Source of the DNA: Cyanophora paradoxa CCMP329
Taxonomy: Eukaryota; Plantae; Glaucophyta
Direction: 5' to 3'
DNA: 51,304 nucleotides
Assembly: GCA_004431415.1 (NCBI GenBank)
Contig: QPMI01000543.1
Span: 1 to 51,304, forward strand
A model generated the notes under the pieces. It saw only the letters and a program-made list of their open reading frames with translations. It made no database searches and was not told the origin of the DNA. The translations under genes were made by a program, and so were the position numbers. Below, in pieces: positions 14,987 to 51,304 of this stretch; the stretch's first letter is position 1; each line of letters opens with the position of its first letter.

Positions 14987-15044
14987 GAAGAGTTGGAATC
15001 AGAGTCTGGACTCAAAACGGGGAAATTTTCGGAGGGGGAGAAAA

Positions 15045-21969: not shown

Positions 21970-23578
21970 TGCAGGCGGTCTTCTGCTTGGCTTATACAAT
22001 TAATCATGAATAAATCTAAGGAGGGAAAGGGGGAGAGGTGGGGGTGGGGGGCGCTTCAAAATTTCGGGGACACCAGAAATCTAGATCTAGAGCGGCCGTG
22101 GTCTTATATAATTAAGGAGGACTGGACGTCAATGGGAAACGGCGTATCCCCAGGTGCCGAGCTGAGCTTGGCCAGATGGAGAGACGAGGTGGGGGGTCCT
22201 TGAGCGAAGCCTGGACGTAAATGGGAAACGCAGTACCCCCCAAGGGGGCGAGCTGAGCTTGGCCAGAGGAAGAGACGGAGGAGGGGGCCGGGGGCCTTGA
22301 GCGAAGCCTGGACGTAAATGGGAAACGCAGTACCCCCCAGGGGGGCGAGCTGAGCTTGGCCAGAGGAAGAGACGGAGGAAGGGGGACCTTGAGCGAAGCC
22401 TGGACGTAAATGGGAAACGCAGTACCCCCCAGGGGGGGGGGGGCGAGCTGAGCTTGGCCGGAGGGAGAGAGGAGAGAGAGGGGAGGGGGCCTTGAGCGAA
22501 GCCTGGACGTAAATGGGAAACGCAGTACCCCGAGGGGCAAGCTGAGCTTGGCCGGAGGAGAGACGGAGACAGGGGAGGGCGGCCTTGAGCGAAGCTACTT
22601 TCTACTTTCTAGCTGAGCTTGGCCGGAGGGAGAGAGGAGAGAGAGGGAAGGGGGCCTTGAGCGAAGCCTGGACGTAAATGGGAAACGCAGTACCCCCTTC
22701 CCCTCCCATCCACCCTCCATGAGCCAATCCGAGCACATGATCATGATCATCAACGATTATTGCAATAATAATCAATCAAGCAGTAGGAATATTATGAGAT
22801 CGCAGCGTCAGTTTATATCTGCGGTCGATTCTAGATCGGATCCCGTCCCCGCGCGAGCCTTCTCTCTCTAGATTCAGATGTAGATCTCAATCTAAATGGC
22901 ATCGATGCCATGATAATCATATATATGCAGCTGCAGGCGGCAAGGAGAGCTGGGGGTACAGCGTTTCCCATTATCGTCCAGGGCTCCCCTATGGCCGGGG
23001 TGTCCCGCAGAGAGGAGAGCGGGGGTACAGCGTTTCCCATTATCGTCCAGGGCTCCCTATGGCCGGGTGTCCCGCAGAGAGGAGGGCCCCGGGGTACAGC
23101 GTTTCCCATTATCGTCCAGGGCTCCCCTATGGCCGGGGTGTCCCGCAGAGAGGAGAGCGGGGGGGACAGCATTTCCCATTTACGTCCAGGGCTCCCCTAT
23201 GGCCGGGGTGTCCCGCAGAGAGGAGAGCGGGGGGTACAGCGTTTCCCATTATCGTCCAGGGCTCCCCTATGGCCGGGGTGTCCCGCAGAGAGGAGAGCGG
23301 GGGGGTACAGCGTTTCCCATTATCGTCCAGGGCTCCCCTTTGGCCGGGGCCCCCCGCAGAAAGGAGAGCTGGGGGGTACAGCGTTTCCCATTTACGTCCA
23401 GGGCTCCCCTATGACCGGTGTGCCCCGCAGAGAGGAGATCTGCGGGGGACAGCGTTTCCCATTATCGTCCAGGGCCCTCGTACACATGCACATTGCCGGC
23501 CCCGGGGTCCCCGCAGATCTAGAGAGGAGATCTTTGGGGTCAGGGGTTACAGCGTTTCCCATTTACGTCCAGGGCTCC
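21970..23578. repeat. Bipartite repeat module 1 (6 forward cores, type-A centre, 9 reverse cores)
   Basis: CTGGACGTAAATGGGAAACGCAGTACCC at ~22122 (degenerate), 22211, 22308, 22400, 22503, 22668; reverse core GGGTACAGCGTTTCCCATTATCGTCCAG at ~70-bp period from 22953 to 23575. Confidence 0.95.
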
Positions 23579-23972
23579 TCTTTCGAAGCGTGCGCGTGAT
23601 CATGAGACTCTGAGATCGCGGCCATCTTTGGGACTCGGAGCTGTAGACCTCGCCAATCGCGAGTCGCGTTGTGCGCGGGCCGCGGCCGGCCGCGCGCGGG
23701 TCCAAAGTCAACTGTGCTGCATTCAATCATAATTTGCATTTACGTATATATACATTTGCGGCCGTGCGGGCCTTGCCAGCACTCTAGATCTAGATCTAGA
23801 TATAGATTTATCATCGTATGGCGTATGCGGGCCGGGGGCGCGGCGAGCCGGAGCGCGTGCAGCCAGCAGGGCTTGCGGCGCGCGTCGGCGAGCTCCGGCC
23901 GTGGGCCCGGGGCCCGGGGCCCGGGGCTGGCCATGGGCGCGAGGCATGTGCGAGGCGTGAGAGCGGGTGCAG

Positions 23973-24957
23973 CTGCAGGCGGTCTTCTGCTTGGCTTGAT
24001 CATGAATAAATCTAGAGGTGGGGGGCGGGGGGAGGGGGAGGGGGGGGGGGGGGGGGGGGGGGGGGGCAGAGGTAGGGGGGGGGCGCTTTCAAATTTTCGG
24101 GAGCACCAGAAATCTAGATCTAGAGCGGCCTTGAGGGAGGCCTGGACGTAAATGGGAAATAGCGTACCCTCAGATGCAGCTGAAGGCGGGAAGAAGTTTC
24201 GATCTGCTTGGCTTGAATAAATCCTAGAGGGGGGGAGAGGGCAGAGGTAGGGGCGGGGGGGCGCTTTCAAATTTTCGGGAGCTCCAGAAATCAAGATCTA
24301 GAGCGGCCGCGGCCTTGAGGGAGGCCTGGACGTAAATGGGAAACGCTGTAACCCCTGGCACACGAACTGAGTCTAGCCAGGGAGAAGCGGGGGGGGGGAA
24401 GGGGGGGAGAGGGGGGCTTTCTTACAATCACCCATATGCACGGCAGCCCGGCGGCCCCCCCTCTCCCCCCCCCCTCGCCCTCACCCTCCATGAGCCAATC
24501 CGAGCACACTGACATGATCATGATCATCAACGATTATCGCAATAGTAATGATCAAGCACTAGGAATATTAAAATGAGATCTAAGCGTCGACGTCGGTCTA
24601 GATCTAGATCTAGATCTAAATCTGCGGCTGTCAAGACGACACTAGCTATATAGATCAGATCCCGTCCCCCGCACGCGCCTTCTAGATCTCACTCTAGATT
24701 TAGATGTCGCTCTCAATCTAAATGGCATCGATGCCATGATCATCATATGCAGCTGCAGGCTGCAAGGAGAGCTGGCCGTGGGATACAGCGTTTCCCATTT
24801 ACGTCCAGGGCTCCCCTATGGCCGGGGTGTCCCGCAGAGAGGAGAGCGGGGTATAGCGTTTCCCATTATCGTCCAGGGCTCCCCTATGGCCGGGGTCCCT
24901 CGCAGAGAGGATGGCTGTGGGGGTACAGCGTTTTCCATTTACGTCCAAGGCTCCCCT
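23973..24957. repeat. Bipartite repeat module 2 (2 forward cores, type-A centre, 3 reverse cores)
   Basis: Same leader as module 1 (GCAGGCGGTCTTCTGCTTGGCTT...TTCAAATTTTCGGG...); cores at ~24142, 24326 and ~24781, 24849, 24919; centre 24483-24775 homologous to 22712-22950. Confidence 0.93.
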
Positions 24958-26995
24958 TTCCCCTCGCTCTCTTCAGCCAACTGCAGGCCGACCGCATACC
25001 TCCCTCTCGCTCTCTCGACAGCTGGATGGGGGGTCGAGGAGGAGGCCCGAAAAGTCGAAAGATCTAGATCTAGCTAGGCGCCGTTCAACTCTCGCAGGCG
25101 ACAATCCCAACACGATCATGTGGTGCGATTACGATCGAGCTGGCAGGGCGCCCACATCGATCGAGCTAGCCTACTAGGCGCCTCCCAGCCACCGGCCCGG
25201 GGGCGGGACAGAAAGAATCCGAGGGGGGCAGATCTAGAGGCGCGCGCACTGCACGGCCGCGAGAGAGAGGAGCTCCGCCACCTCCCCGCCCGCCCGGGGT
25301 GCAGAGCTGGACCGCCGTGCGTGTCCCGGTCCGCTGGTGTGCGTCTCCTTTGCCTGCTCCTGCAGCTGAGCGAGGGAGCGACGAGGGGTCCCGAGACCGG
25401 GGCGCCCGGGCCCGGGCGCGATGGGGCAGGGCATCGAGAGCTCGAGCGAGCGGTCTCGATCGCGAGAGGGCGCACCGGTACGGCCCTGCCGAAGAGGCCG
25501 CCGTCGGCCCGGACGACGACCGAGGGCTCCGAGCGGGACCGGCCGCGGCGCGCGCGCCTCCGGTCCCGAAACCGTCCCGAGCCGGTCCAGCTCGGGGCGA
25601 CGTCGAGCAGGCTGGCATTGGCCACATGCATGGCTGGCGAGACGCGCGCAGTGCGCCTAGCTGTAGCCGTAGGCCAATGGCAAGCTCAAGGCTAGGCCAT
25701 GCGCGCGCCCGACGCGCCGCGGCCGCTCGGGCTCCTCGTGCTCGCGATCGAGCCCCCGCCACTCGATTCTTCTCCGTCTGCAGCTGCAGCTGGATCTGCG
25801 CGCCGCGGCGCGCGTTACGTGGCGGCGGGGCCGACGGGGCGCATCGGCGCATGCGCACTAGCACTGCGGCAGCTGCGCATGCAGGCCCGGGGCAGGAGAC
25901 GCCCACGTGCGCGTGGGACGAGCTCTGAGATCGACAGCGCGCCCATGGCGATCTCGATTCCACGCGTTCAAGGCCGCACGGCCAGCGCATCGCCGATCTA
26001 GATCTAGATCAAGACGGCTCGAACTCGATGCTGCATGACGGCTTCACTCGCTGCGATGCCGATGCCGATGCCGATGCAATCGAGCCGATGCATGTGCCGC
26101 TCTTCCCCCGCAAGCTCGCTCGACCGCACTGGGGGCGGCCGCCCCGCGCTGTTCTCGCCGGCACGGGGCAAAGGATCCAGACTTGGAGCGTGCAGTCCGC
26201 CAGTGATCGGGCCCTAGATCTCCTTTCCGCACGACTTAAGCGCGGGGCGCGCGGGGCCACGGGGCGGCCTCGAGCGCGAGGTGCGACTGTACCCCACTGG
26301 CCCGCCCCGCTCTCTTGGATCGGCGGCTCCGACCCACCTCTGCGGTGCGGTACGCTCCTCTCGGATTTGGGCCCCCGTTCCGACCGGATTCGCAGACCCT
26401 GCGCCTTTCCGCAACATTCGATCCGCGAGCTACGAGCACGCGCGATCCACCGTGGCACGCGCGCCATTTGAGAGCCGCGCTGCGAGCGCGGACGATGGCC
26501 TGCCGTCCACCGCAGCCGCCCCCGTGCGCCCCTGCCATCCGATCTGCGACCCGCGGCCATCTCGCACCTTTCTCCCTCGATGGCGTCGCCCGATCGGCCC
26601 TCCACGGTGCACGCCGGCTCTTAGAATGGGTCTGGCCGCCTCTGGAAGACGCAGCGACGCCGGGGCTCGCAGGTCGCCGAGCTGGAGACGGGAATCTCTT
26701 CTTCTTGCATCCTCGGTTCGTACGGCGCTAAGCCTCGCCGACCGCGCTCCCCGGGTCGCGCTCGCGTGCTCACCGACCCCTCAGCGGTGGCGGGGCGGCG
26801 TGGGACGCTTCGTTCTCTTCGGGGCGGGCTGGGCGGGGGCGGCACCCGCGGATCGGGCGGACGAGGCCGAGCGGGGGCCGATCCGTCGGCTCCGGCAGCT
26901 GCGGCGCGACCGCCGGCTCCATCCCTTTCTCTTCCCTCTTTCCGGCGCGCCCCCGTGTCCGGCGCGCCGTCCGGCCCGGTTCCTTTTGGCCGCGG

Positions 26996-29900
26996 TCACG
27001 GCCCGCGGTTCTTCCGCGGCCTCCCGCGCGCCCGCGGGGCCCCCGAGCCGCCCCGTACGGCGGCCCCCGCACGCGGCGTCGGAGGAGCGGGGGGCGAGGA
27101 CGGCCCGCCCCCCAGGCCCAGCAGGTCGGAGATGCGGGCCGGGGGCGTGCGGATGTCGACGGCGCCATTGCGGGCATCGTACCTCACCGGCGCGAGGGTG
27201 CGCACGCCCGTCCACTCGCGCGCGCTGCCCTCTGAGCTCGGCGTCCAGAGCGCCCCGAACCGGCGGAGGACGGCCCAGCGCGACTCGTACTCGCCGCTCG
27301 GGAGGCGCACCATCTGCACCAGCCGGGCGAACACGGTCCGGGGCAGCGGGTCCGCCGCGTGCGTCGCCACCGCCGCCGCCACCTGCCCCGGGGGTACGGG
27401 CTCGCGCTGACCCACCTCAGGTGCCACACGGGCCGCGACGGCGGGTCCGCGGGCTGCGCGGCGGGGAGAGCGGGGCGCTCCGGGCCCGGAGACGCCGCGG
27501 GGGAGGCGGCCCGACGCCCCTTGGTCTCCGCCCCGCGTCCCGTCCCCGACGCCCCGCCCCCGCGGCGGGCCCTCGTGCGGCTCCCGCTGCCGTTGGGGCA
27601 GGTCTGCGCGTGCCTTCGGGCCCCCGCCGCCGTCTGAAAGGTCTGGCGTCGGTGAGACGGTGCGCGTGCGCGCGCGCGCGCTCGCTCCCCCTCGCTCGCT
27701 CGCGGAAGGGTGGGGCGGGGCGGGCTCACCCGTCGGCAGGGCTCGCAGTACCGGCCCTCTCCGATTGCGAGGTCGAGCTCCATCTGGTCTCCCGGGTCGA
27801 GGCGCCGCCGCTGCCACGGGAACCGCTTCGGCTTTCGCGGCCGCTCCTCTTCCTCCTCTTCCTCTTCCTCCTCTTCCTCTTCCTCTTCCTCCTCTTGCTC
27901 CTCCTCCTCCTCCTCCTCTTCCTCTTCCTCCTCTTCTTTGCCGCCCTCTGTCTCGCTCCGGCTCCCGCTCCGGCTCCCGCTCCCGCTCCCGCTTCCGCTC
28001 CGGCTCTCCGGCTCCCCTCCCTTTCCGGGCGGGGTACCGCCTCCCCGCGGGGGACGGGCGGCGGTGCGCGGCGGGACCGACGTCGGCGTCGCGCCCGTCG
28101 ACGTCTCGGGAGCGCGGGGCGAGCTCGGAGGCGGCAGAGGGGCGACCGCAAAGGGTACGGCGGTGCGGACGGGTACGGCGGTGGGGACGGGTACGGCGGC
28201 GGGCGCCTCGCCGGGGCCCGGCCCGCCCGGGTCCGGATCGGCGGGGAGGAGGGCCGGCGGCGAGTCGCGGTCGGCGGCCCCCGTGGACCGCTCCCGCTCG
28301 GCGGCGCGGCGGCGCTCGTGCTCCTCGGCCAGGCGCTGGAGGTACGCGACGGCGGCCGTCGCCGTGCGCTGCCGCGCGCTGGCGTCGTAGTGCGTCGTCG
28401 CCGTCTGCGGCGTGTGCGCCAGGAGGCGCGCCACGCCCTCGGTCACCGCCGCCGCCGCGTCCCCCTCGATCAGGTTCACCGCCGCCTGGTCCCGCACGTG
28501 CGTCGTGATGACCGCCCGCATCGTCTTGGCCGTCACAGGCACCCCGGTGTAGCGCACCATCACCTGCGCGCGCGCGCGCGCGGGCGCGCGGGGCGCCGGC
28601 GTCAGCGTCGGCGTCGGGATTCGAGCCCACGCAGTAGGTTCGCTCCCCCTCTTCCCCCCCTCCCCCCTCCCCCCTCCTCCCCCCCCTCCTTCTCCCCCCC
28701 CCCCCCCCCCCCCCCCCCCCTCTTCTCCCCGAGCGCACCTTTCTGACAAAGGCCGCCCAGCCGCTCTCGGAGAGGCAGGTGCCGAGGCTCGAGGCAAAGA
28801 GCCAGCCCTGGTCGGGCCCGCCCGGCGGCAGGAGGAGGGCGCGGAACCGCTCGATGTAGACGTCGAGCGGCCCCTGGAGGCAGTCGGCGATCGGCACGAT
28901 CATCGCGCCGTGGGACCTGCGCGGCCCGGCCTCGGCGCGGGCGGGAGGGGGAGGGGCAGGGGGGTACGAGGGCGCGGGGGCGCGCACTTGGCCGTCTTCG
29001 AGACGAGCTCGCCGGTCTCCCCGTGGCGCATCTCGAGGAGGCTCAGGTGCCACCGCCCGCCGTCGCGGCGCAGCGTGTGACCGATGCGCAGGCGCCGCAC
29101 GACGCCGACGCGGGCCGGCGTCACCGAGATGAACCCGATGAGCACGGCCTCGCGCAGCAGCCGGGCCTTGTCCAGCTCGAGCGGCGCCCGCTCGTACGCC
29201 GCGAGCGCCTCGACCCGCGCGGACAGCACCGCGTCGAACGAGACCCAGTTCGGTCCGCGCGGCCGCCACCCCCGCTGCTGCTTCTTCTCCTTTTCGAGCT
29301 GCGTCTTCAGGTTCCGGAGGGGGCGCGCGTGGGGACCCTCGGAGGACCCTCCGCCCGGCCCGCCCGACGTACCCCCTCCGCCGCCGCCGCCGCCGCCGCC
29401 AGAGGTGCGGGAGCAGACAAAGGTGTAGGCCTGCATGATGCTCTGCGTGTACCCCGCGAGCGTGCCGGGCGCGAGACGGCGCTCCTCGCGCAGGTACTGC
29501 AGGAAGCGGACGTAGATCTCGACAAAGTCGGCCCGCGCCAGCAGGTCCATGGTGAGGGGCCCGACGCGCTCGCGCTCCTTGACGTACCCCAGCAGGCGGC
29601 CGATCGTCCCCACGTCGTTGACGAGCACCGTGCTGCGCTCCGCCGCGCCCCCCTGGCGGTCGGGGTTGAGGGCCGAGGTGCGCCACGCCTGAAACGCCGC
29701 CAGCTGGTTCTTCAGCTCCCGTGACATCTCCGCCTCGCGCAGGGCGTACGGCGCCAGGCGCTCCGGCTCCGGCTCGCCCCCCCCGTCGGCCGCCTCTTCC
29801 TCCTCCTCCTCCCCCTCCCCCTCCTCCTTGCCCTCTCCTCCCTCGGGGGCTTCGAGGGGCCCTGCGTCCTCGCCCTCTTCGGCCTCGGCGGACGATCCCG

Positions 29901-31747
29901 AGGAGCGGGAAGAGGACGAGGAGAGCGAGGGCGGGGGCGGGGGCGAGGGCAAGGGCCCCGGCGGCGCGGCGGCGGGGGCGGAGGAGGAGGAGGAGGGGGA
30001 GGGGCCGGGGCCGGCGGAGGGGCCCCCTACCCCCCGCCGACGGGCGGCTCGGGGGGGTACCGAGGGGGGCGGCGGGGGGAGGACGACGCGCTCGGCGTCG
30101 GGCAGCGAGTCCTCGTCAAAGAGGACGACCTCCTTGTCCACCATCCCGCTCTCCAGGAGCGTCCGGTACGCCTCGCGCTTCTCCGCGATGAAGCGCCCGT
30201 TCTCCTCCGAGATCGCCGCCGACACCGCCTCGCCCCTTCGCACGTAGGCCAGGCTCCCCGCGGAGATCTCGTCGCCCCAGGGGAACCCCGTCATCACCTC
30301 CGTCGTGAGCGCCTCGGCGAACCAGAGCGTCCACGGCCCGCACTGGTACCCGTCCCCGACCTGCAGGCGCCCGCGCGTCTCCGTGACGAAGCGGTAGCGG
30401 GGAAAGGCGGCCTTGCAGGCGCGCTCGAGCCTGGGGTCGGGCGGGCCGCCGAGCGAGTCCCAGAAGCGCGTCTGCTTCGACGCCCCGTCCACCGCGAGGA
30501 GGGTCCAGTGGCCCCCGCTCGATCCCCCTGGGTGCGCTCCCCGCCGCGCCTCAGGTTGCCACGCTGACGGGGCAGAGGACGCAGGTCCCGCGCTCGGCGG
30601 CGCCCAGGGCCCTGCGCGCCCGCCGCGCCTCGTCGGCGCGCGCGTACCGGAGCAGCAGCGACGTCACGATCTCGACGTGCATGGGGTAGAGGGCCTTGAT
30701 CCGTCCCCCGGCGCCGGCGCGGAGCAGCAGCAGCGTGAGGACGTTGGCGATCTCGGCGTCGCGGAGCCAGCTCTTGCGGCCGAAGATCGAGATGCGGCGG
30801 GCCAGCGGGAGGGGCCGGGAGGGCCCCGCAGCGGCCACGGCGGCCGGGTCCGCCCCCTCGAGCACGAGGCGGGCCCTCTGGAACTCGGCGGCCAGCCCCT
30901 CTCTCCGGTCCGGCAGCGCCCCGAGGAAGCGCTCCGCCCCCAGGGCGCTGACAAAGGCCCACCTGCGCGCAGATCCGTGCGTCGCGACGTCGGCCCCGAG
31001 GCCGCCGTAGTGGACGAGGGTGCGGGTGAGGAGGGCGAGCCGCTCGCGCCCCACCGTCCGCGTGCTCGCCTCGAAGCGGTGCGGCCCGCCCACCGCGAGG
31101 TCCGGGTGCCGCCTCATGATCTCCATCCGGACGCAGTTCGTGGAGCGCGAGTCCCCGTAGGCCGCCTGGGCGAGGCTCGCCAGCGGGATCCACCACTCGA
31201 GCTCCGGCACCTGCGTACCCCCCCCGGCCCCCACCGTTGCCGGCGGCGATGGGGAGGGGGGTACAGGGGTACGCACCTCGATCCGCCGCGCGCGCACGGC
31301 CAGGAACCGATCCCCCGCGGCGCGCAGGACCTGCATCTCGAGGCGCTCGAGACGGGCCTGCCTCCGGCGCTCCAGCGCGGCGTAGAGCTCGGCCGCCGCG
31401 CGGTGCATGCGCCCGTCCTGCGAGCGCTCCCACGTGTTGCTCACGATCGGCTCGACGTAGCGCAGGGGCAGGACCCGCGGCGGCCGCTCCTGCGCGTCGT
31501 GCACGTTGCGCGCGATGGCGCCCAGCGTCTCCAGGAGGAGGATGGCGTTTTCGTCGGGCAGCGGGCGCGTCGGGACCCGGTGCGCCTCGGTGAGCGCCTC
31601 GTCGCCGCTCGCGATGCCCAGCAGACGCCTGAGCTCGGCCGTGCAGACGCAGGGGCCGGCGTCCGTCCGCAGGACCACGAGGCGGGCCGGCCCGTACGGG
31701 CCCTCGAACTCGGCCAGCTCGTACGTGTCCGTGACCGCGGAGAACAT
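26996..31747 (-). CDS. Spliced multidomain protein: Ulp1/SENP-type (C48) cysteine protease + tyrosine recombinase + acidic tract + C2HC zinc finger + AT-hook
   Basis: Protease motifs WLRDAEI, GGHWTLLAVD, FWDSL, QVGDGYQCG. Recombinase motifs TPARVG (R), SKTAKSHG (K), AKTMR (K-x-x-R), LLAHT (H), TTHYD (Y). Inferred GT-AG introns 31211-31276, 28917-28987, 28564-28738 and 27643-27729; splicing restores KTAKSHG and CEPCRRTFQTAAGARRHAQTC. C-terminal RGRPRK. Unresolved frame changes near 30560 and 27400. Confidence 0.82.
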
Positions 31748-32589: not shown

Positions 32590-32616
32590 GGGTTCGAATC
32601 CCGGCGGGAGACTTTT
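32590..32616 (+). promoter_or_regulatory. Isolated Pol III B-box-like motif followed by TTTT
   Basis: GGGTTCGAATCCC matches the GGTTCGANTCC consensus; no tRNA cloverleaf upstream; similar motifs at ~14873 (+) and ~19292-19304 (-). Confidence 0.3.
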
Positions 32617-40146: not shown

Positions 40147-41675
40147 ATGGCCCAACAGAGTCGATTGCGAGTGTGAGTGCACAGGAGATCTAGAGCTCTA
40201 CGCCTCCACGTCGGCGAGGGCGGCTGCGTGCACAGCGCCTCCACTAGTACTGGCATTCAAGAGTCCAATCGCAACGAAATCGAGTCCGATTTCCGATATC
40301 GATTACACGCGGGGCCTCGGATACACGGGCCTACATCTACAGCTCTACGCGTCCACGTCGTCGAGGACCGCGATGCGGACGGCGGGGTGCGCGCAGAGGA
40401 TCTGGTACGCCTCGACAAAGGCGCCGCGGAGCTCGTCGCCCTCGAGAGGGATGCGGCTCTCGAGGAGGTGTCGTGGACGGCGATGGGGTGCCGAACCGGA
40501 TGCGGAGGAAGCGGTGCTCGTAGGCGGCGGCGGCGGCGGCGGCGCGCTGGAACGCGAGCCCTCTGTTCGAGACGACGACGAGCGTCTTCGTCACGCCGTC
40601 CCAGATGCGGCCCAGGCGCGCGGTGGAGAACAGCGGCTCCTCGCGCACGACGAGCGCGCGCGCCGTCTCGCAGCGCGTCGTGGTCCATTGCGCAAACTTG
40701 CGGTTCTTCATCTCTTTCTCGCCGACATCCACGACGGCGTCGGCCCCGCCGGGCAGCAGCAGCTTGGCGACGGTGGTCAGGCAGTTGACGGCGAGCGTCT
40801 TTCCCGTGACGGTGAGCCCCTCGATGGAGAGCGCCGTCTTTCGGAAGCCGTCGTTGCCTCCGCCGACGAGGGCGCGGCCGTAGAGGGCGAAGACGGCGAG
40901 GATCCGCCTGTCGGCAAAGCCCTGGTCGCGTAGCACGCGGACGAGAACGGTGTCGGCGCGCCCGACGTACACCGCGTCGCCAGGGTTTGCGAGGTCGATG
41001 TTCCAACGCGGCGTCGCGATCGCCATGATCGTGATGGCTCGGCGCGTCGCGCTAACTTGGAAACGTTGACGCGACGGGTGCGAGCGTGCTAGGGTGCACG
41101 GCCGCGGTTTGCAGTGCGGAGCTCGCTCGGGGCCGCCTTTTATACTGCGGGCCGCGGCGGGCCCCGCGAGAATTCGAATTTCCAAAGAGTTGACGGGACG
41201 GGTACGCCCCTCGCGGTCGCTCATGATCGGACGGCCCTGCGTCGACGATCATACGAGCGCCCGCGTTCGAACTCCTATATACAGCTACACGCGGACGCGC
41301 GTGCGAATTCAGAGACCATCGGACGAGCTCCCGATCGGGGCGTCGGCCCGACGCCATGGCCCAACAGAGTCGATTGCAATTGCGAGTGTGAGTGCACAGG
41401 AGATCTAGAGCTCTACGCCTCCACGTCGGCGAGGGCGGCTGCGTGCACAGCGCCTCCACTAGTACTGGCATTCAAGAGTCCAATTAATCGCAACGAAATC
41501 GAGTCCGATTTCCGATATCGATTACACGCGGGCCTCGGATACACGGGCCTACATCTACAGCTCTACGCGTCCACGTCGGCGAGGACCGCGATGCGGACGG
41601 CGGGGTGCGCGCAGAGGATCTGGTACGCCCCGACAAGTGTTTTTAAAGGGGCCGAGGAGCTCGTCGCCCTCGAGA
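40147..41675. repeat. ~300-bp direct repeat pair (about 40147-40445 and 41356-41675)
   Basis: Near-identical CATGGCCCAACAGAGTCGATTGC...GAGGATCTGGTACGCC blocks; they contain the 3' end of the intervening gene, indicating a tandem duplication. Confidence 0.9.
40337..41026 (-). CDS. Hypothetical intronless protein
   Basis: Globular-looking ORF (MAIATPRWNIDLANPGDAVYVGRADTVLVRVL...); TATAAAA on the minus strand about 110 bp upstream; probable frameshift near 40480 into GDELRGAFVEAYQILCAHPAVRIAVLDDVDA*. Confidence 0.55.
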   Translation of the reverse strand: MAIATPRWNIDLANPGDAVYVGRADTVLVRVLRDQGFADRRILAVFALYGRALVGGGNDGFRKTALSIEGLTVTGKTLAVNCLTTVAKLLLPGGADAVVDVGEKEMKNRKFAQWTTTRCETARALVVREEPLFSTARLGRIWDGVTKTLVVVSNRGLAFQRAAAAAAAYEHRFLRIRFGTPSPSTTPPREPHPSRGRRAPRRLCRGVPDPLRAPRRPHRGPRRRGRVEL

Positions 41676-41862
41676 GCTCGAGGGGTGCGGCGCTGGAGGG
41701 CGGTGTCGTGGCGGGCGACGGCATCTGCATAAATACATATGGCTAGCTGTAGAAGCGCGCCTGCCCTCCTCCCGAGCCTCGCGATTCGCGATCACACGCA
41801 TGCGCGAGCTCAGCCTCGCGCGCGATCGCCATCGATATCGCCAGCCGCCTCGCTCACGCGCA

Positions 41863-42827
41863 CTACGGTACGGCGGCGCCCGCGGCGCCGGCCGCGGCTG
41901 GGCATGGCCGAGTGTCCTGCGCCGCTAACCGCTCCTTGAAATCGCGCGCGGCCGCGCGCACCGCCGTCGGCGAGACTCCCGCCGCGTGCGAGATCCTGCG
42001 AAAGCTCCAGCGTCGGGTCAAAGCCGACGTCGATTGCGCTCGCGGCGTCGACGGCTTGCTCGCAAGGGCCAGGGCGGCGACGGCGAGACTTTCGGGCGAC
42101 CTCGAAAATGGGCGGGGGGCACGGCTCGCTGCGGTTCGGAAGAGCTCCTGCGCGCGGGCAATGGTCGCTCGGTCGAATTCAATGCGTCGTCCTATGGAAC
42201 GGATGATCTCTTCCGTCATGCCGTACCCTGCCACCATTTGCTGACCGAATTGTGCGCTCAGGGAGCGGATCATGCGCTGCAGCTCGCCCCGAGTGAAAGA
42301 GGCCGTGCCGCCGCACGCGCACAGGTCGCCCTGCTCCAGAAACTCCCGGAGGAGGCGGGGGATCCCGCGAATCTGGACGGCGGCGTACAGCGCGGCGATG
42401 GCGAGGACGTCGTAGCGCCGCCCGTTGACGATTCCCGTGCGCTCGTCGGACTCGCACAGAATTTCAAAGGCCTGGAGCGCGACGCTCTCGGGAAGCGACA
42501 TGCGCTCCGCAATATCGTGCACGGTCGCGAGCAGGTTCTGGCGGTCCGCGCACGCGGAGCGCGCTCGCACCGCGCCCCGCCCTCGAGCTCGCCTCTGGCC
42601 GGCGCCGCGGCCGAGGCGTCCGTCGCCCGCGAGCGCGCCGCATTGGCGTTGCAAAGCACACGTGCACGTGCTTGCCCATGTGCATTCCACGCACATTCCC
42701 CCATGCCGCGTGTACGTGCGCAGCGCCGGGCCCTCGAACGCGACGCCCACGCACGCGCCGCAAACGGTGCACACCGGCCCTCGGGCGTGGACGCGACGAA
42801 AGGGTGCGGGCAGGTCTTGGATTCCAT
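41863..42827 (-). CDS. TFIIB/TFB-family transcription factor (zinc ribbon + two cyclin repeats), 1-nt frameshift near 42780
   Basis: CPH...VCTVCG ribbon; IAERMSLPESV...GRRYDVLAIAALYAAVQIRGIPRLLRE; RSPESLAVAAL...ISHAAGVSPTAVR. Confidence 0.85.
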
Positions 42828-42939
42828 TTCCGGTCTGTGAAATGCGGTACGAGAGAGATCGCGTCGTCTTTTATCCCTCGCTGCAATCGGGCCGACCGCG
42901 TCAGAAATCAAAGTTCCAAGTTCGCGCGTGGTCATGTAT

Positions 42940-43629
42940 GCGCATCATACGATCAGCGCTGGCGACCCGGCATACGTGGTCATATGCATGGGCCGCGTGC
43001 ACGTGCACGACGCCAACGACTCGAAGAATCGCTGCCGCATGCACGGTCGTGTGACGAGAACAAAGCAGGTGAATTCCGTTTGTTTCCACGTCTAAATGAA
43101 AATTTCGACACACGTGTACATGTACAAGGCTACGCGTGCATATGCGAGCAGCGAGGGGTACGGTCTGCGCGAGACACGGCACGGAGCCGAGCAGCCTCGT
43201 AGAGGGCGGCACGGAGGGCGAGGCCCCCGTACGCGCGGCCGGCGGTGCGCCCATGGCCATCCGGCTCCGCGTCAGAGTTGATGTGGGACCCCGACTCGTT
43301 CAGGATGCCGAGGGCCCGGCGCGCGGCGCTCCTCGGCCGCGGGAGCGACATGCGCTCCGCCGTCTCGCGCAAGGCGGTCAGCAGCTCTAGATCTCGGCCG
43401 TCTCGGTGGGCCTTGCAATTGGGCGACGTCGTCGAGCCGCCGCCGCGGCCGTCGGTTCCGGGCCCGTGCGCGTCGCGTTCGTTGAACGAATCGACGACCC
43501 TAGAGCCTGCGTATCCTCGCCCCTCAAACTCGAATTCGAACGCGACGCCCACGCACGCGCCGCAGACGGTGCACACCGGCCCTCGGGCGTGGACGCGACG
43601 AAAGGGTGCGGGCAGGTCTTGGCTTGCAT
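42940..43629 (-). pseudogene. TFIIB-like paralogue 2, degraded
   Basis: MQAKTCPHPF../VCTVCGACVG...LRETAERMSLP...GRAYGGLALRAALYEAARLRAVSR, then stops. Confidence 0.75.
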
Positions 43630-43839
43630 TTCCGGACTGTGGAATGATGGATGGCAGTGCTCGACACGCTTATATCCGGTGCCAGAGGGCCAGTTGCAAC
43701 GCCGACAAAGGCGTGGGCACGTGTTGATTGAAACAATGAATTCAAACGTATACTCAATATGTATACATGCGATGTCATTATAATATAAGAACGCGCAGGG
43801 CTGGAATGTAGATGTCGTCCTCGAGCGTGCTCATGTATA

Positions 43840-44546
43840 CGCATTATACGATCAGCGCTGGCGACCCGGCATATGTGCACGTGGTCATATGCATGGGCCG
43901 CGTGCACGTGCACGTGCACGACGCCAACGACTCGAAGAATCGCTGCCGCATGCACGGTCGTGTGACGAGAACAAAGCAGGTGAATTCCGTTCAAACGGTT
44001 TGTTTCCACGTCTAAATGAAAATTTCGACACACGTGTACAAGGCTACGCGTGCATATGCGAGCAGCGAGGGGTACGGTCTGCGCGAGACACGGCACGGAG
44101 CCGAGCGGCCTCGTAGAGGGCGGCACGGAGGCGAGGCCCCGTACGCGCGGCCGGCGGTGCGCCCATGCCATGGCCATCCGGCTCCGCGTCAGAGTTGACG
44201 TGGGACCCCGACTCGTTCAGGATGCCGAGGGCCCGGCGCGCGGCGCTCCTCGGCCGTGGAGCGACATGCGCTCCGCCGTCTCGCGCAAGGCGGTCAGCAG
44301 CTCTAGATCTCGGCCGTCTCGGTGGGCCTTGCAATTGGGCGACGTCGTCGAGCCGCCGCCGCGGCCGTCGGTTCCGGGCCCGTGCGCGTCGCGTTCGTTG
44401 AACGAATCGACGACCCTAGAGCCTGCGTATCCTCGCCCCTCAAACTCGAATTCGAACGCGACGCCCACGCACGCGCCGCAGACGGTGCACACCGGCCCCT
44501 CGGGCGTGGACGCGACGAAAGGGTGCGGGCAGGTCTTGGCTTGCAT
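43840..44546 (-). pseudogene. TFIIB-like paralogue 3, degraded (second copy of a ~900-bp tandem duplication)
   Basis: About 43830-44743 repeats about 42930-43826; intact MQAKTCPHPFVASTPEGPVCTVCG ribbon, then frameshifts. Confidence 0.75.
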
Positions 44547-44986
44547 TTCCGGACTGTGGAATGATGGATGGCAGTGCTCGACACGCTTATATCCCGGTGC
44601 CAGAGGGCCAGTTGCAACGCCGACAAAGGCGTGGGCACGTGTTGATTGAAACAATGAATTCAACGTATACTCAATATGTATACATGCGATGTCATCATAA
44701 TATAAGAACGCGCAGGGCTGGAATGTAGATGTCGTCCTCGAGCTCGGCCCGGGCGAGAGCAGACTCTGGGAGGCGACGTCGGTGCACGTGGCTATAAGCA
44801 CCCAGGGCCCGCCTATGGCCAGATCTAGACGTCGAGGCCACGGGTGCTGTGGTGCGGATCGGATGATGACCAAGTCCGGCACGCATCGCAAGAATATTAA
44901 TCCCGCTGGCACGTGCACGACCATATGCATGGCCAGCAGACCTTCCAGCCCCCTGGGCCCCCGCCCTCGACGCACGCACTTTTCCC

Positions 44987-46081
44987 GTGCATGCTGCAGG
45001 CGCTGTCGCGACGCTCGCACAAAATAGGGACATCGACTCTGGCGGTACGCGCATCGACGATCGCGAGCTCGAGCTCGAATCTGGATCTCCGCTGTCAGGC
45101 AAGGACAATCTTCTCGAGCCCGTCCGTGCCGATGCACATGTGCATGTGCATGTGCCGACGTCGGCGCTTGCAAGCACGTGCGCGAGCACGGGCGGCGCGG
45201 AAGAGGGCGACCTCAAGCCCGAGGCTGCGGCGGCAGCTGCAGTTACCGCTGCGACCGCGTCCACGGATCGGGAGGCCGATCGCGAGCCGGAGTCGGACCG
45301 CGCAGATGTCGACGCCGATCGCGACAAGCTCAGGCGCGAGCGCGAGGAGGCCGGGAGCACCGGTCCGGATTCGGCGCGCAACGTCGACGTCTGCACCGAT
45401 CAAGAGGGTACACGCGGTGCGCCAGTGGCCAGTCATGATCATGATCAGCAAACGCATGCGCGCGCGCAATCTCCGGCGCGCGCAGTCATCGGGCCGGATC
45501 TGCAAGCTCCGAATTCTAATTCGGACTCCGGCGCCCACAGCGCTAGCGCGGGTGTCCCGGCAGGCCCCGCCCGCGGCGACGTGGACGGCATGCGCACCGA
45601 CAAGAGCTCCCCCGCCGCCCAATCCCTCTCGGGCGCGGCGGAGCTCTCCGCGAAATTTGGCTGCAAGCAGCCCGTCGTGTTTCTCCTCGGCGGCGCCAAG
45701 CCCAGCTCTGCCTACGTGGGTTGCTGCTGCAATCTCAAGCGCAAATTTGCGGAGCTGCGCGGGTCGGGGCTCCTGGACATGACGCGCGACCGAGGCCCCT
45801 GGAAGATTCGGGCCGTCGCGCACGGATTCCCGAACGAAAACGTCGCCAAAGCTTTTCAGATGCTCCTCGAGTCCAAGTGCCGCAGCAGCGGGGTGAGCAA
45901 GAAGCTGCGGGTGATGCGCGAACTCACAGAGGATTTTTCGGCGATCTCCGGCGAGCCGCGCGCTGGTGACGCGGGGCGATCCGCGTCGAGGTGGACGCCG
46001 ACGGCGACGCGCATGCTCTACGAGTCGGAGAGTAGGCGAATGGAGCTCGCGCATCCCGTATCCCGTAGTACATACATGTAG
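44987..46081 (+). CDS. GIY-YIG-like protein with degenerate active site and long disordered N-terminus
   Basis: VVFLLGG...AYVGCCCNLKRKFAEL...RDRGPWKIRAVAHGFPNENVAKAFQM aligns by eye with the 18183..18779 protein; start uncertain. Confidence 0.7.
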   Translation: MHAAGAVATLAQNRDIDSGGTRIDDRELELESGSPLSGKDNLLEPVRADAHVHVHVPTSALASTCASTGGAEEGDLKPEAAAAAAVTAATASTDREADREPESDRADVDADRDKLRREREEAGSTGPDSARNVDVCTDQEGTRGAPVASHDHDQQTHARAQSPARAVIGPDLQAPNSNSDSGAHSASAGVPAGPARGDVDGMRTDKSSPAAQSLSGAAELSAKFGCKQPVVFLLGGAKPSSAYVGCCCNLKRKFAELRGSGLLDMTRDRGPWKIRAVAHGFPNENVAKAFQMLLESKCRSSGVSKKLRVMRELTEDFSAISGEPRAGDAGRSASRWTPTATRMLYESESRRMELAHPVSRSTYM

Positions 46082-46339
46082 ACGGCGCCGGCATACGCAC
46101 GAGCTCGAGCGTACGCGTGTCGCACAGAGGTTCATATGCAGTGCAGCCGCACTTTCACGCGGGCCATCCGAGTCGCTATATTTATCTTATATGGTTTGAT
46201 AGGCTTTTTTTTGGAAAGCCTGTTGCATTCGTACACACTTGACAACAGTCCCCGCTCCTCGCCTACCGGATACTGGGATGCTGACTGCAGGAGGAGATAG
46301 ATGACAAGAGTGCTACAGCTAGTATTCGTGTCGAGCTGG

Positions 46340-46856
46340 TGCTTGAGCTTGGCCAGAGGGAGAGAGGAGAGAGAGAGAGAGGGCAGCTTTGAGCAAAGCC
46401 TGGACGTAAATGGGAAACGCAGTACCCCCAGGGGGGCGAGCTGGCGTGGCCGGAGGGAGAGAGGGAGGAGGAGCCCCTTGAGCGAAGCCTGGACGTAAAT
46501 GGGAAACGCAGTACCCCCAGGGGGGCGAGCTGAGCTTGGCCGGAGGGCGAGAGGAGAGAGAGGGAGAGAGAGGGCAGCTTTGAGCAAAGCCTGGACGTAA
46601 ATGGGAAACGCAGTACCCCAGGGGGCGAGCTGAGCTTGGCCGGAGGGAGAGAGGAGAGAGAGAGAGAGAGAGGGCAGCTTTGAGCAAAGCCTGGACGTAA
46701 ATGGGAAACGCAGTACCCCCCAGGGGGGCGAGCCTCGGAGCTGAGCTTGGCCGGAGGGAGAGAGGGAGGAGGAGCCCCTTGAGCGAAGCCTGGATGTAAA
46801 TGGGAAACGCAGTACCCCCAGGGGGCAGGCTGAGCGTGGGCGGAGGGAGTGACGGG

Positions 46857-46914
<58 letters not shown>

Positions 46915-47590
46915 CGGGGGCAGAGAAATGCAGGACCCCAGGCGATCTCCCCCCTCCCTCTCCTCCTCCCATCAGCCAAACGGAGCACATGATCGGCGAT
47001 AGTCATTATGAGCAATATTAATATTACCTGCAGAACTGAATGCGTATGGTCCCAACCTAGAATGCCTCATGATCATCTTATCTAGAACTTTCAGCTTCTG
47101 AGCCTCACGATGCGCATCTAGATTTAAATTAGCCCCTCTTTCTCCTATGATCCGTCTCTCGCTTTTCCTGCTTGGAATGTCTTTCTTGAAGTTTCAAGCT
47201 CATGATCGATTTCGATATATATTGCCGCTGTCCAAAGTCGAATCTTTTGTTGTTAAAACAAACTTCTGGCAACTCTCCTCTGCCGAGAGGAGGGCCCCGG
47301 GGTACAACGTTTCCCATTATCGTCCTGGGCTCCCTATGGCGGGCGGGGGGCGCTCCGGATCCGCAGAGAGGAGGGCCCGGGGTACAGCGTTTCCATTATC
47401 GTCCAGGGCTCCCCTATGGCGGGCGGGGGCGCTCCGGATCCGCAGAGAGGAGGGCCCCGGGGTACAGCGTTTCCATTATCGTCCAGGGCTCCCCTATATA
47501 TGGCGGGGGCGCCTCCGCAGAGAGGAGGGCCCCGGCTTTCACGCGGGCCATCCGAGTCGCTTTATATATATTATATGGTTTGATAGGCGT
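46340..47590. repeat. Bipartite repeat module 4 (5 forward cores, long G tract, type-B centre, 3 reverse cores)
   Basis: Forward cores at ~46400, 46489, 46591, 46691, 46790; centre ~46920-47295 homologous to 35065-35400; reverse cores at ~47299, 47379, 47459. Confidence 0.95.
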
Positions 47591-47671
47591 GCCCGTCGCC
47601 AGTCGTGTATATATCGATATCATAGTATGCAACCTAGGCCTCGAGCTCTTTATATCATACCGTCGTCCTCT

Positions 47672-48431
47672 GCGCCCGATTTAGAACACGGGCCGGGGCG
47701 CGGGGGCCGGGGGCGAACCTCGAGCGCATGGTATCGCTCGAGGTGGCGGGATCCGGCCAGCTCGCCCCGTACCCCCCTCTGAACGCGCCCGCGCCCGATT
47801 TAGAACACGGGCCGGGGCGCGGGGGCCGGGGCGTGCCTTCTGGTATCGCTCGAGGTGGCGGGATCCGGCCAGCTCGCCCATACCCCCTCTGAACGCGCCC
47901 GCGCCCGATTTAGAACACGGGCCGGGCGCGGGGGCCGGGGGCGTGCCTTCTGGTATCGCTCGAGGTGGCGGGATCCGGCCAGCTCGCCCCGTACCCCCTC
48001 TGAACGCGCCCGCGCCCGATTTAGAACACGGGCCGGGGCGCGGGGCCGGGGCGTGCCTTCTGGTATCGCTCGAGGTGGCGGGATCCGGCCAGCTCGCCCG
48101 TACCCCCTCTGAACGCGCCCGCGCCCGATTAGAACACGGCCGGGGCGCGGGGGCCGGGGCGTGCCTTCTGGTATCGCTCGAGGTGGCGGGATCCGGCCAG
48201 CTCGCCCCGTACCCCCCTCTGAACGCGCCCGCGCCCGATTTAGAACACGGGGCGGGGGCGCGCGGGGACGGGGCGCACCGCCCGGGTTCGCTCGAGGTGG
48301 CGGGATCCGGTCAGCTCGCCCCGTACCCCCCTCTGAACGCGCCCGCGCCCGATCTAGAACACGGGGCGGGGGCGCGCGGGGACGGGGCGCACCGCCCGGG
48401 TTCGCTCGAGGTGGCGGGATCCGGCCAGCTC
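47672..48431. repeat. Tandem repeat, ~110-119 bp unit, nearly 7 copies
   Basis: Unit GCGCCCGATTTAGAACACGG...CGCTCGAGGTGGCGGGATCCGGCCAGCTCGCCCCGTACCCCCTCTGAACGCGCCC starting at ~47672, 47791, 47901, 48012, 48121, 48231, 48345. Confidence 0.93.
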
Positions 48432-49999
48432 ACCGTCGACGCCACCTACAACGCACCGAGGTCAAGCGTGGGCGCAAGGCGAGGGAACGCTAGACGGCGG
48501 GCCAAGGCGGGCCTCGCCCGTGGAGAGCCACCTGCAGCGAGACGCTCCCACCACGTTCCGCCGCCCGCCCTCTGCTCGCTGCCACCCCGCCAAGCCGAGT
48601 AAGATCCCAGGAGAGAAGGAGCGAGGCCGGGGGCCGGCGCACCTCGCAGAGCTCGGAGCGCCGCGCGCGGCGCTGCGGAGATCTAGATCTAGAGGCAATT
48701 GCAAGGGCGGCCGACCGGCGCGGGCGGTCGTTCCACGCGCTCCGCCACGCACGAGGCGCCAGAGGCGCGAGATGACCCGATCCGACCTCCATCGGCGCCT
48801 CGGCGCTCCGGGGCTCGGGAGCAGAGCGCTGCGTGGGCGCGAGGAAGCGCGTCCGGTCGCGGCGCGGCTGCGGGGCGCTAGGAGAGCTACGGTGCGCTCG
48901 GGGAGGTCGCCGATGCGGCGGCTGCCCCTTGATGTCGTCCGCCTTGCCTGTCTCGCCCGCAGGCCCAGAATCGCGCAATCGAGCGCCGCCGCGCGGCGAG
49001 ACCAGGCGGCGTGGCGCTCCGGGAGCTCGCTCGAGCCGCCGGCGAGCTCGTGCGGCTGCTGCGCCCAGATCCAGTCGTCCGGTATACGTAGGTCGGCCCC
49101 GGCGCAGGCCGGGGTCGGAGCCGACTGCGGGTACGCGTGCGCGGCCCGACCTCTCTCGCCGGCTTCCTGCCTCTGGACTCTTGCGGCGGTCCCGGGACGC
49201 AGAGGCAGGCTCGAGCTCGCCCACGCCGGTCCGATTGCGCCGAGACCGCGCGGCTCGCGTGCGGTTCGCCTCGCCCGACAGCACCGCTAGCTACAGAGCT
49301 ATCGCCGGCACCGCCAGCCGGTAGGGTGTGACCAACGCGCAGCGCGCATCCTCTCCGGGCGTTTTCTGCGGTTTCCGCCCGCCCGGGCCGCTCGGTCGCC
49401 CCGGCCGCCGCTCCGATCCGGTCGCAGCAACGGCGCCTTTCACCCAGGTCGGGCTCGCGCCCAGGCAGCCCGTCGCGCGCCCTCGAACGGGGAGCAGGTC
49501 GCACATAGGTTGCAATCGAGGCTGCCGGTGCGGCCCCCCAATTCGGGGCTTCGCGGCGTATACGTACGATCTGATCGGCGGACCCGCCGCAGGCGCCGAC
49601 CTCGCCGGCGCAGGAGATCCCGCGGCCCGCGGGGCGCGAGCGGATGCCACGCTTGATTTCGCCGCGAGGCGCGGGGCTTCTGCGCTCGGTACGACCCCGC
49701 CGCGCCCAAAGCCCGCCGCCGACTCGCCGACCGCGCGCGCGCGCCCCGCGTATCAGCCCGCGCCGCGCGGCGGCGGCCGGCGAGCCGGCCGAGCGAGCCG
49801 AGGCGCGGCGCCGGGCGACCTCGCCGATCGGCCCGTCCGGCCCGTCCAGGGAGCGACCGCCCGGGCTCCGGCGAGGTCGCCCCGCGCCTCTTCGAGTGTC
49901 CTCGCTCCGCCGGTCCGATACCGTTTCCCCCCCCGTCTCTTTCGAGCTCGCCGCGCGGCGCTTTCGACGAGGCTCTGCAGCTGCGCCGGACGGGAAGAG

Positions 50000-50290
50000 A
50001 GGGGGTACGCTTCACGCTGGCCGGAACCCGCCAGGCGCGCGGTAGGGGCCCGCCCCGCGCCCTCTTCCCCCCCTCGCCCCGTCCCCGTCCCGACGCCGGC
50101 CGGCAGAAACGACGGGGAGCGGGGGGTACGCCTCTCGCTGGCCGGAACCCGCCAGGCGCGCGGTAGGGGCCGCCCCGCGCCCTCTTCCCCCCCTCGCCCG
50201 TCCCCCGTCCGACGCCGGCCGGCAGAAACGACGGGGAGCGGGGGTACGCCTCTCGCCGGCCGGAACCGCCAGGCGCGCGGTAGGGGCCCG
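50000..50290. repeat. Tandem repeat, ~120 bp unit, ~2.4 copies
   Basis: GGGGGTACGC...GCCGGAACCCGCCAGGCGCGCGGTAGGGGCC at ~50001, 50121, 50240. Confidence 0.85.
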
Positions 50291-50592
50291 AGCTCGAGGT
50301 CCGACACCTCTCCCTCCCTTTCCCCTTTCCTCCTCCCTCTCCGCCCCCCTAGGCTCCCGCCCCTCCCTCTCTCTCCCCGCCCCCTTTCCCTCTGACCTTC
50401 CTTCCCCCTCTCCTCGCCCTCCCCACCCCTCCCTGCCCACCCTGCCCGCCGGCGCCCCTCCTCGCGCCCCCATACCTCTCCGCGTCTCACGCCCGTTTCG
50501 ATAGGAACCGAGGCCTCGACACGACATCGCACAGCAGAGCTAGACATAGGTGCGCTCGCAGGGTCCTCTCCCACGTTTGCTGTAAATAGGTC

Positions 50593-51304
50593 CGACGGTA
50601 TGATATAAAGAGCTCGAGGCCTAGTTTGAATACTATGATATATACATGGCTGGCGACGGGCACGCCTATCAAACCATATAATATATATAAAGCGATTCGG
50701 AAGGCCCGCGTGAAAGCCCGGGGCCCTCCTCTCTGCGGAGGCGCCCCCGCCATAGGGGAGGCCTGGACGATAATGGGAAACGCTGTACCCCGGGGCCCTC
50801 CTCTCTGCGGATCCGGAGCGCCCCCCGCCCGCCATAGGGGAGCCCTGGACGATAATGGGAAACGCTGTACCCCGGGGCCCTCCTCTCTGCGGATCCGGAG
50901 CGCTCCCGGCCCGCCATAGGGGAGCCCTGGACGATAATGGGAAACGCTGTACCCCGGGGCCCTCCTCTCTGCGGATCCGGAGCGCCCCCCGCCCGCCATA
51001 GGGGAGCCCTGGACGATAATGGGAAACGCTGTACCCCGGGGCCCTCCTCTCTGCGGATCCGGAGCGCCCCCCGCCCGCCATAGGGGAGCCCTGGACGATA
51101 ATGGGAAACGCTGTACCCCGGGGCCCTCCTCTCTGCAGAGGAGAGTTGCCAGAAGTTGTTTTTTACAACAAAAAGATTCGACTTTGGACAGCGGCAATAT
51201 ATATCGATCGAATCATGAGCTTGAAACTTCAAGAAAGACATTCCAAGCAGGAAAAGCGAGAGACGGATCATAGAGAAAGAGGGGCTAATTTAAATCTAGA
51301 TGCG
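50593..51304 (-). repeat. Bipartite repeat module 5, inverted copy of the right half of module 4 (5 cores), truncated by the window end
   Basis: 50593-51304 is the near reverse complement of 47113-47665, with two extra core units. Confidence 0.93.

Follow-up and report, generated by a model that had tools for sequence, protein, structure and literature searches.

A putative virus-derived mobile element of Cyanophora paradoxa with a tyrosine recombinase gene and five repeat modules that may be recombination junctions

In the glaucophyte Cyanophora paradoxa CCMP329, contig QPMI01000543.1 of assembly GCA_004431415.1 (positions 1 to 51,304, forward strand; this whole stretch of 51,304 nucleotides is referred to as the window) carries a tyrosine recombinase (YR) gene among five repeat modules that separate dissimilar blocks of DNA. 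What are these modules, and how did the blocks between them come to stand in a row? The favoured reading, to which an even chance is given, is that the region is part of a virus-derived mobile element of at least 31 kb, present in a few copies, in which the modules are attP-like junctions of units inserted in tandem by the element's own YR. It is drawn from the repeat arrays, the recombinase, the dispersed paralogs of that recombinase, partial core copies upstream of its gene, and a virus-like cargo.

The union of two scans (43 and 44 matches) comprises 45 copies of one non-palindromic core of ~30 bp between 21.9 and 51.3 kb, whereas motif scanning found no copy in positions 1 to 21,900 and none in any of 60 Markov simulations. 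The copies form nine arrays, which group into five modules (M1 to M5), as had been claimed in an earlier note on this DNA that described inverted core arrays around conserved centres. The arrays always face inward, toward an AT-rich centre of 245–360 bp, with a GC content of 42–44% in the centres compared to 66–73% in the blocks. Units are 88–104 bp long in left-type and 68–82 bp long in right-type arrays; the two types are only 54–61% alike overall and have little in common beyond the core. M1 consists of a left array of seven cores, the outer two degenerate (21,922–22,700, plus strand), a type A centre of 44% GC (22,700–22,945), and a right array of nine cores in units of ~70 bp (22,945–23,580, minus strand). 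M2 (24,141–24,957) has two left and three right cores around a type A centre at about 24,465–24,760, M3 (34,390–35,696) has seven left and four right cores around a type B centre at about 35,067–35,385, and M4 (46,344–47,535) has five left and three right cores, also around a type B centre. The inverted M5 (50,717–51,304, minus strand) includes five right-type cores and the right part of a type B centre that is cut by the window end. From M1 to M4, successive centres are 1,771, 10,629, and 11,852 bp apart.

The division of the centres into two types, likewise proposed earlier, is borne out by identities of 90% between M1 and M2 (type A) and 92% between M3 and M4 (type B), compared to 69% between types. 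Centre type and right-array type are mostly paired, A with 70-bp and B with 82-bp units; the right array of M3 is mixed, with the 82-bp unit type inside and a 71-bp type outside. M4 and M5, in inverted orientation, have the centre, the array, and a flank of ~135 bp in common, and their flanks differ by eight substitutions in 129 aligned bases, so M5 is a real diverged copy and not a foldback at the level of sequencing error. A direct copy (~54 bp) of the sequence starting at the outer edge of the right arrays of M4 and M5 lies at 46,152–46,205 (plus strand), about 190 bp left of M4. In lambda-type attP sites, a central crossover region is flanked on either side by arm-type sites, and a layout of this kind, with predicted arms, can be recognised in the sequence of the modules. 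Rfam gave no matches, and a protelomerase-type hairpin junction was rejected, as the centres are not palindromic.

The recombinase gene (26,996–31,747, minus strand) contains introns and encodes, in order, an N-terminal region, a Ulp1/C48 protease domain, SAM-like and catalytic YR domains, and a low-complexity tail. Its product is a genuine tyrosine recombinase, as the earlier note had supposed: the exons encode R, K, R, H, and Y as catalytic residues, while the first His of the YR signature (HxxR) is a Lys here and a residue other than His across the family. The fold was tested on the model of a paralog, P0008 (43% identical to the window protein over the exon-1 core), which stood in for the spliced window protein; this model (pLDDT about 90 across much of residues 350–730) has a predicted fold like those of Cre and XerA, with the top 11 PDB matches at E <= 1e-3. 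The family profile also matches a XerC-like chain (E 0.0014), and the protease domain lies above its Pfam cutoff (E 8e-5), with the His, Asp, Gln, and Cys visible. Neighbours of the YR in the Atlas are integrase-like clusters and a Preplasmiviricota cluster at 0.96, and its viral fold matches are a mixture of algal-virus proteins and phage integrases. Across 48 family proteins, the curated Pfam cutoff for YRs was never reached, and their Phage_int_SAM matches are weak. HMMER yielded 132 library matches to the exon-1 core; a word-indexed search with the YR exon returned nothing, and the PDB gave nothing but Gly-linker noise for exon 1. P0035 and a few PLAT proteins among the family matches were set aside as spurious.

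Short-read contigs from four of 24 listed runs were compared with positions 19–38 kb, which include M1 to M3. Over the 5′ part of the YR gene, contigs in two RNA-like runs from two studies cover 739 genomic bases with about 445 of their own, suggesting splicing of this gene or of a near-identical copy; runs X15 and X16 are called RNA-like solely because their contigs skip GT-AG introns, and no listed run is recorded as RNA. Downstream of the gene, a region at 25,110–26,284 (minus strand) with two GT-AG introns, delineated by RNA-like contigs and splice ends, encodes no convincing protein; it may be a long non-coding RNA or a 3′ extension.

Three right-half cores, TTGC(A/T)GTACCC, lie at 31,846–31,929 (plus strand), about 100–180 bp upstream of the YR start codon. 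Three half-cores within 200 bp were found in none of 200 simulations, and the shorter half motif occurs only four times in total outside the modules; the core motif is thus linked to the YR gene. Mobility of the YR element is likely, judging from eight C. paradoxa paralog gene models in EukProt that are located on eight other contigs and are 36–80% identical to the window protein (BLASTP). Two of the paralog models are fused to host genes, and one is preceded by a translated tandem repeat of about 1,000 amino acids (P0006, residues 1–1090, on another contig, where a ~140-bp tandem array directly precedes the YR paralog). In a tree of 51 sequences (five added sequences and those rows of alignment A1 that have 260 or more residues in the domain), the Cyanophora YR proteins form one clade (support 1.0), and its sister group (0.90) is a pair with a protease-fused homolog among its members.

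Relatives of this YR were found in a metagenome scan at 78 loci. Family matches on the minus strand occur in six of these loci, and five of the 78 (L005, L018, L021, L023, and L025; L046 is ambiguous) have a second, converging YR-family gene. In the tree, the two convergent genes belong to separate clades, mostly without the protease fusion. Both YR genes of L005, L023, and L025 begin at the inner edges of inverted repeats, of which 2,994, 105, and 123 bases, respectively, fall within the loci. The L005 repeats hold four cores each, in tandem units of ~181 bp; with 100% identity and symmetry around the midpoint of the contig, they may stem from a single unit that the assembler traversed twice. 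The same core is present in L018 as two pairs of opposite orientation, about 40 bp apart, arrays that look like a compact analogue of a module. The N-terminal domain of the relatives is predicted from models to fold like the DNA-binding domains of Bro-N/KilA-N, Dachshund/Ski, and Mbp1 (best Z 8.1, rmsd 3.1, 98 aligned), and the N-terminal region of the window protein is likely to bind DNA; a profile test for an internal repeat within the latter was not significant. Genes next to the relatives encode a telomere resolvase, an SF2 helicase, RING proteins, a Clp protease, and a nested DDE transposase, the last being pogo-like and nested in the L005 element (1–19,071). In L033, the telomere resolvase gene (12,360–13,400; ResT/TelK, E 5e-15) stands beside a family YR and the SF2 helicase, suggesting a linear, hairpin-ended replicon; a motif flanking this locus was down-weighted as microsatellite-like.

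Three protein scans of IMG/VR confirmed no YR relatives, a motif scan of IMG/VR found no copy of the core, and none of 74 candidates in GTDB genomes was confirmed. No published description of the element or of its YR family was present among the literature matches listed, a scope that leaves out subscription papers, Repbase, and most supplements. The main text of PMC12344493 does not contain the word "recombinase", and its supplement text contains neither the five contig names sought nor "GEVE", although its figures may show such a region; the main text of PMC10120064 does not contain "Cyanophora". Within this scope, the elements make up a previously undescribed family of YR mobile elements in eukaryotes, and their YR family is widespread in marine metagenomes; the elements with two YR genes (L005, L018, L021, L023, and L025) are apparently undescribed as well.

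The cargo is carried in blocks of very different content. To the left of M1 lies a 620-aa open reading frame (ORF) (19,978–21,840, minus strand) with no Pfam, PHROG, or PDB match, and its block is probably part of the same element. The near-empty block between M1 and M2 (23,590–24,110) is homologous over its right ~200 bp to the flank left of M1 and, by this shared right-end flank, looks like a deleted unit. The YR block also encodes an intron-rich histone H3 variant (32,783–34,039, plus strand), named in the earlier note and upheld by exon-wise translation and a Pfam Histone match of one exon (E 4.4e-4, below the curated cutoff). It has Arg at the K27 position, keeps the K4, K9, and K36 positions, and has an extended loop region; it is a possible anti-silencing histone.

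Annotation of the next block, between M3 and M4, was revised. The block holds a likely remnant of a D5-like superfamily-3 helicase (40,487–41,026, minus strand) with the P-loop GLTVTGKT, which has no relevant Pfam or PDB match and is recognised by Atlas DUF5906 clusters at 0.92 (186 of 256 features in common); a ~340-bp direct repeat (89%; 40,146–40,486 and 41,355–41,721) flanks most of this ORF. Of three TFIIB genes proposed earlier, one is a whole copy (41,863–42,827, minus strand; Pfam E 1.3e-10), with a second gene model at least 90% identical on another contig, whereas the other two are truncated N-termini within a ~916-bp tandem duplication (42,922–44,743, minus strand) whose copies are 99% identical. 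Three further labels found little or no support: the 232-aa ORF at 35,664–36,362 (minus strand), formerly called Skp1-like (Skp1/BTB), has no Pfam or relevant PDB match; the long low-complexity ORF with Cys pairs at 37,171–39,381 (minus strand), formerly RING-like, has only sub-cutoff zinc-finger matches; and the degenerate GIY-YIG/SLX1-like ORF at 45,590–46,081 (plus strand) matches only SLX1, at E 0.34. Block 3 (47,536–50,716), in which no gene was recognised, consists of inverted flanks of ~135 bp, a 110-bp array of 6.8 copies, and a 121-bp array of 2.5 copies. Searches of ORFs in the window (34 against Pfam, 15 against PHROGs) revealed no gene for a capsid, a polymerase, or packaging; the element extends past the window.

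Outside the module region, a GIY-YIG nuclease gene (18,183–18,779, minus strand; Pfam E 1.3e-9) may belong to the same element. Positions 12,200–17,000 are palindrome-rich and non-coding, with short tandem motifs and orphan ORFs at 14,925–15,515 and 15,854–16,397, and resemble another inserted element. Positions 1–12,000, at about 50–64% GC, hold several long ORFs (e.g., 10,244–11,467 and 8,451–9,137) without a clear Pfam match and may be further virus-like DNA.

How such a locus could arise by tandem accretion can be put in a few steps. The N-terminal region of the YR protein would bind the 30-bp core in the manner of an arm-binding domain, and the YR domain would exchange strands somewhere in the AT-rich centre. 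A unit would then be released as a circle with both arrays at its joint, to be reinserted at an existing joint to give two-armed inner junctions. Blocks that have no recombinase (0.5 and 10.7 kb) would be passengers mobilised in cis, the M4/M5 pair would stem from an inversion or an inverted insertion, and the upstream half-cores could serve autoregulation of the YR gene. Each block can be regarded as a unit with a right-type array at its left and a left-type array at its right, so that a module is where two units meet and matches the joint of a circle after excision. Bacterial elements have been described as accreting in tandem at att sites, where repeated insertion at joints leads to the same combination of two-armed inner junctions and recombinase-less passengers (PMC5704250). 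Binding, cutting, circle formation, and autoregulation by this YR system are what we infer from the arrangement.

The proposal that the modules are recombination junctions, also made in the earlier note, is partly supported by the genuine YR, the half-cores upstream of its gene, a contig depth of the centres like that of the blocks, and relatives in inverted repeats with arrays. Several results weigh against it. Neither a circle, an empty site, an inversion, nor a change of block order was found in the short-read contigs of 19–38 kb. The sole module-to-module joint among those listed has a 30-base side within left arrays and is a cross-match; the listed joints as a whole, with sides of 20–48 bases that come from repeats or other genes (e.g., a host H3-like gene), were rejected as recombination evidence. 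No chimera of A and B was present among the four complete centres, and the YR block itself sits between unlike centres. A scan for perfect inverted half-sites with arms of at least six bases, modelled on 11–13-bp inverted sites around a 6–8-bp spacer, found no pair common to A and B that could be a shared crossover core. None of the 78 relative loci contains the core of the window, and in relatives the YR genes begin at the repeats, whereas genes in both large blocks of the window point toward the modules. Among relative loci of at least 4 kb, tandem units occur in nine of 27 and distant inverted repeats in six of 27, with no control set. The window N-terminus matches the Bro-N-like domain only at E 7.6–9.4 (two paralogs), with an HHalign probability of about 1% or less. 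Depth and junction data are confined to 19–38 kb, short of M4, block 3, M5, and the left boundary, and contig depth is not a copy number. Finally, arrays around an AT-rich centre fit replication origins or enhancers as well.

Taken as contig depth, the values for long contigs with few differences are 381–716 (run X1) and 126–219 (X5), those for stray contigs that cross-match low-complexity spots being mostly 70–190 (X1) and 28–83 (X5). The block left of M1 is similarly deep: a contig at 19,834–22,075 with zero differences has a depth of 716 (X1), and its pieces have depths of 219 and 190 (X5). Centre B of M3, at 486 (X1), is similar to the blocks. Depth declines from the left block through block 1 to block 2 (716, 612, and 430 in X1; 219, 166, and 126 in X5), which could reflect copies that differ in content, or GC bias together with contig splitting. 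These depths hint that the whole region exists in a few copies and reaches at least 2 kb left of M1, and that there is no large family of solo modules. This deep left block, the Ulp1 protease fusion, the D5-like helicase remnant, and the three half-cores go beyond what the earlier note had described.

A tentative alternative, which survives best among the others, is that the modules belong to an endogenous DNA virus or plasmid as its iterated origins or enhancers, comparable to hr- or iteron-like arrays around an AT-rich unwinding region, and that the YR integrates the whole element elsewhere. The centres have 42–44% GC; half-cores upstream of a gene suit a transcription-factor motif equally well, and no crossover core was found. 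The D5-like helicase remnant and the TFIIB-like genes of the cargo, together with the giant-virus elements reported in this species (PMC12344493), also accord with such a viral origin. In contrast, the left and right arrays are of distinct unit types in a fixed order, as if they were two different element ends, and the arrays of relatives are located in inverted repeats at element ends. The core is non-palindromic, unlike the palindromic cores of baculovirus hr sequences, and the window shows no recognisable gene for a capsid, a polymerase, or packaging. The orientation of the genes in the two large blocks, toward the modules, makes the modules unlikely promoters of these genes.

Doubtful in a somewhat higher degree is the stronger form of the recombination scenario, a cassette system in which multi-gene blocks are excised, reinserted, and inverted between att-like modules by the one Ulp1-fused YR. 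Cargo and its order would then vary from copy to copy of the element, and the cargo would include the H3 that lacks K27; this histone could shield the element from silencing. Also unlikely, and more so, is that each module in its entirety forms a single long terminal structure and was multiplied as a unit, whether through nested insertion, unequal crossing-over, or inverted duplication, with no exchange of cassettes, in which case M3 and M5 or M4 and M5 would be the two ends of elements of the terminal inverted repeat (TIR) type. The joint inheritance of centre and right-array type in most modules, the inverted M4 and M5 with their common centre, array, and 135-bp flank, the long identical inverted repeats of L005, L023, and L025, and the ordinary tandem duplication close by at the TFIIB genes all speak for such copying. 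It is opposed by the right array of M3, which mixes both unit types, by the several nested events that four direct modules in series would require, and by the fact that no short target duplication was identified.

An unrelated family of foldback miniature inverted-repeat transposable elements (MITEs) or satellites, inserted five times and without a link to the YR, is very improbable. Repeats make up about 29% of the genome of this species, and 11.5% is unclassified (PMC6704402). Just left of the element lies a very deep repeat (19,000–19,863; contig depth 30,000–127,000 in X1), likely MITE or short interspersed nuclear element (SINE)-like, which adjoins the deep block and breaks contigs at 19,834. 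The depth of the centres, over M1 to M3 and with the reservation that depth is not copy number, resembles that of the blocks and not that of this high-copy neighbour, which argues against dispersed solo MITEs, as do the clustering of all 45 cores within 29 kb, the first 21.9 kb being free of them, and the half-cores upstream of the YR gene. Least credible is a block order partly due to assembly, with different copies concatenated through repeats, since the many single-base indels between the window and short-read contigs (12 of 29 rows listed), the want of a contig spanning a whole module, and the apparently multi-copy region are countered by real substitutions between modules, non-redundant blocks, and module lengths (0.8–1.7 kb) that are short for long reads.

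Among known systems, the closest likeness is to accretion among bacterial ICE, IME, and CIME (ICESt-type elements; modular excision of PAISt), with which it shares a YR, tandem units, two-armed internal junctions, and recombinase-less passengers (PMC5704250, PMC4057263). It differs in being eukaryotic and intron-containing, in arms of 2–9 tandem units of 70–100 bp, in carrying no conjugation genes, in that no shared crossover core was found, and in that its excision is only proposed. YRs, superfamily-3 helicases, and GIY-YIG nucleases are part of the gene pool of Polinton-like viruses (PLVs; PMC4642659), which have been reported in C. paradoxa (PMC12220804), as have giant-virus elements and methylated viral genes (PMC12344493). 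The element overlaps this gene pool and is possibly akin to the PLVs that have an OLV11-like YR; one of its Atlas neighbours is the Preplasmiviricota cluster at 0.96. Unlike PLVs, the element has no recognised capsid or packaging ATPase, exceeds 15–30 kb, contains internal repeated modules, has a YR fused to a Ulp1 protease, and carries an H3 variant and TFIIB.

Cryptons, such as CryptonF-2_PS and the CryptonS of oomycetes, are YR-only DNA transposons, some with a C48/Ulp1 peptidase, for which circles have been proposed (PMC3212892). They have no TIRs or long repeats and are bounded by 4–6-bp direct repeats, and the consulted part of PMC3212892 mentions no large cargo; the window, in contrast, has long inverted arrays, a comparison that covers its internal structure. 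No Crypton-type YR or GCR1_C domain was found among the 48 family proteins at E <= 0.01. The Starships of fungi are reported as giant, cargo-carrying eukaryotic elements mobilised by a YR. A Starship is defined by a DUF3435 captain as its first gene. Here, there is no DUF3435 match, the YR gene is internal, the modules are repeated and internal, and the host is a glaucophyte. Integrons are built of single promoterless ORF cassettes, each ending in attC, whereas the blocks of the window are multi-gene with divergent genes, or gene-less. For DIRS and Ngaro, neither a reverse transcriptase nor an RNase H had a Pfam match in the 34 ORFs, and a likeness to baculovirus hr is opposed by the non-palindromic core. 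The two-YR metagenome elements have the same YR family (HHalign probability 100%, E 8e-42) and tandem arrays within inverted repeats (L005 and L018), yet they carry two convergent YR genes, have a different core, and mostly lack the protease fusion. The element thus lacks the tested features of Cryptons, Starships, DIRS, and integrons, in agreement with the earlier note, which had held the layout to be unlike Cryptons, DIRS, and Starships, and most plausibly works like an accreting integrative element.

Among eukaryotes, the YR elements with cargo known so far are chiefly the Starships of fungi and the Polinton-like viruses. A further YR family, present in one glaucophyte and at least 78 metagenome loci, is indicated here, and its members tend to sit among inverted repeat arrays. 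The host can be cultured, and the predicted products are circles of 11.85 kb (M3–M4) and 1.77 kb (M1–M2), and an inversion. The element-borne H3 without K27 is a lead to anti-silencing. Were the cassette system real, the accreting islands and shufflons of bacteria would have an equivalent in the nucleus, driven by a recombinase family that is undescribed and widespread among marine eukaryotes. Should the modules prove to be junctions, the recombinase together with its 30-bp site might serve as a new site-specific tool, and the modular accretion of gene blocks, so far bacterial, would also shape algal genomes.

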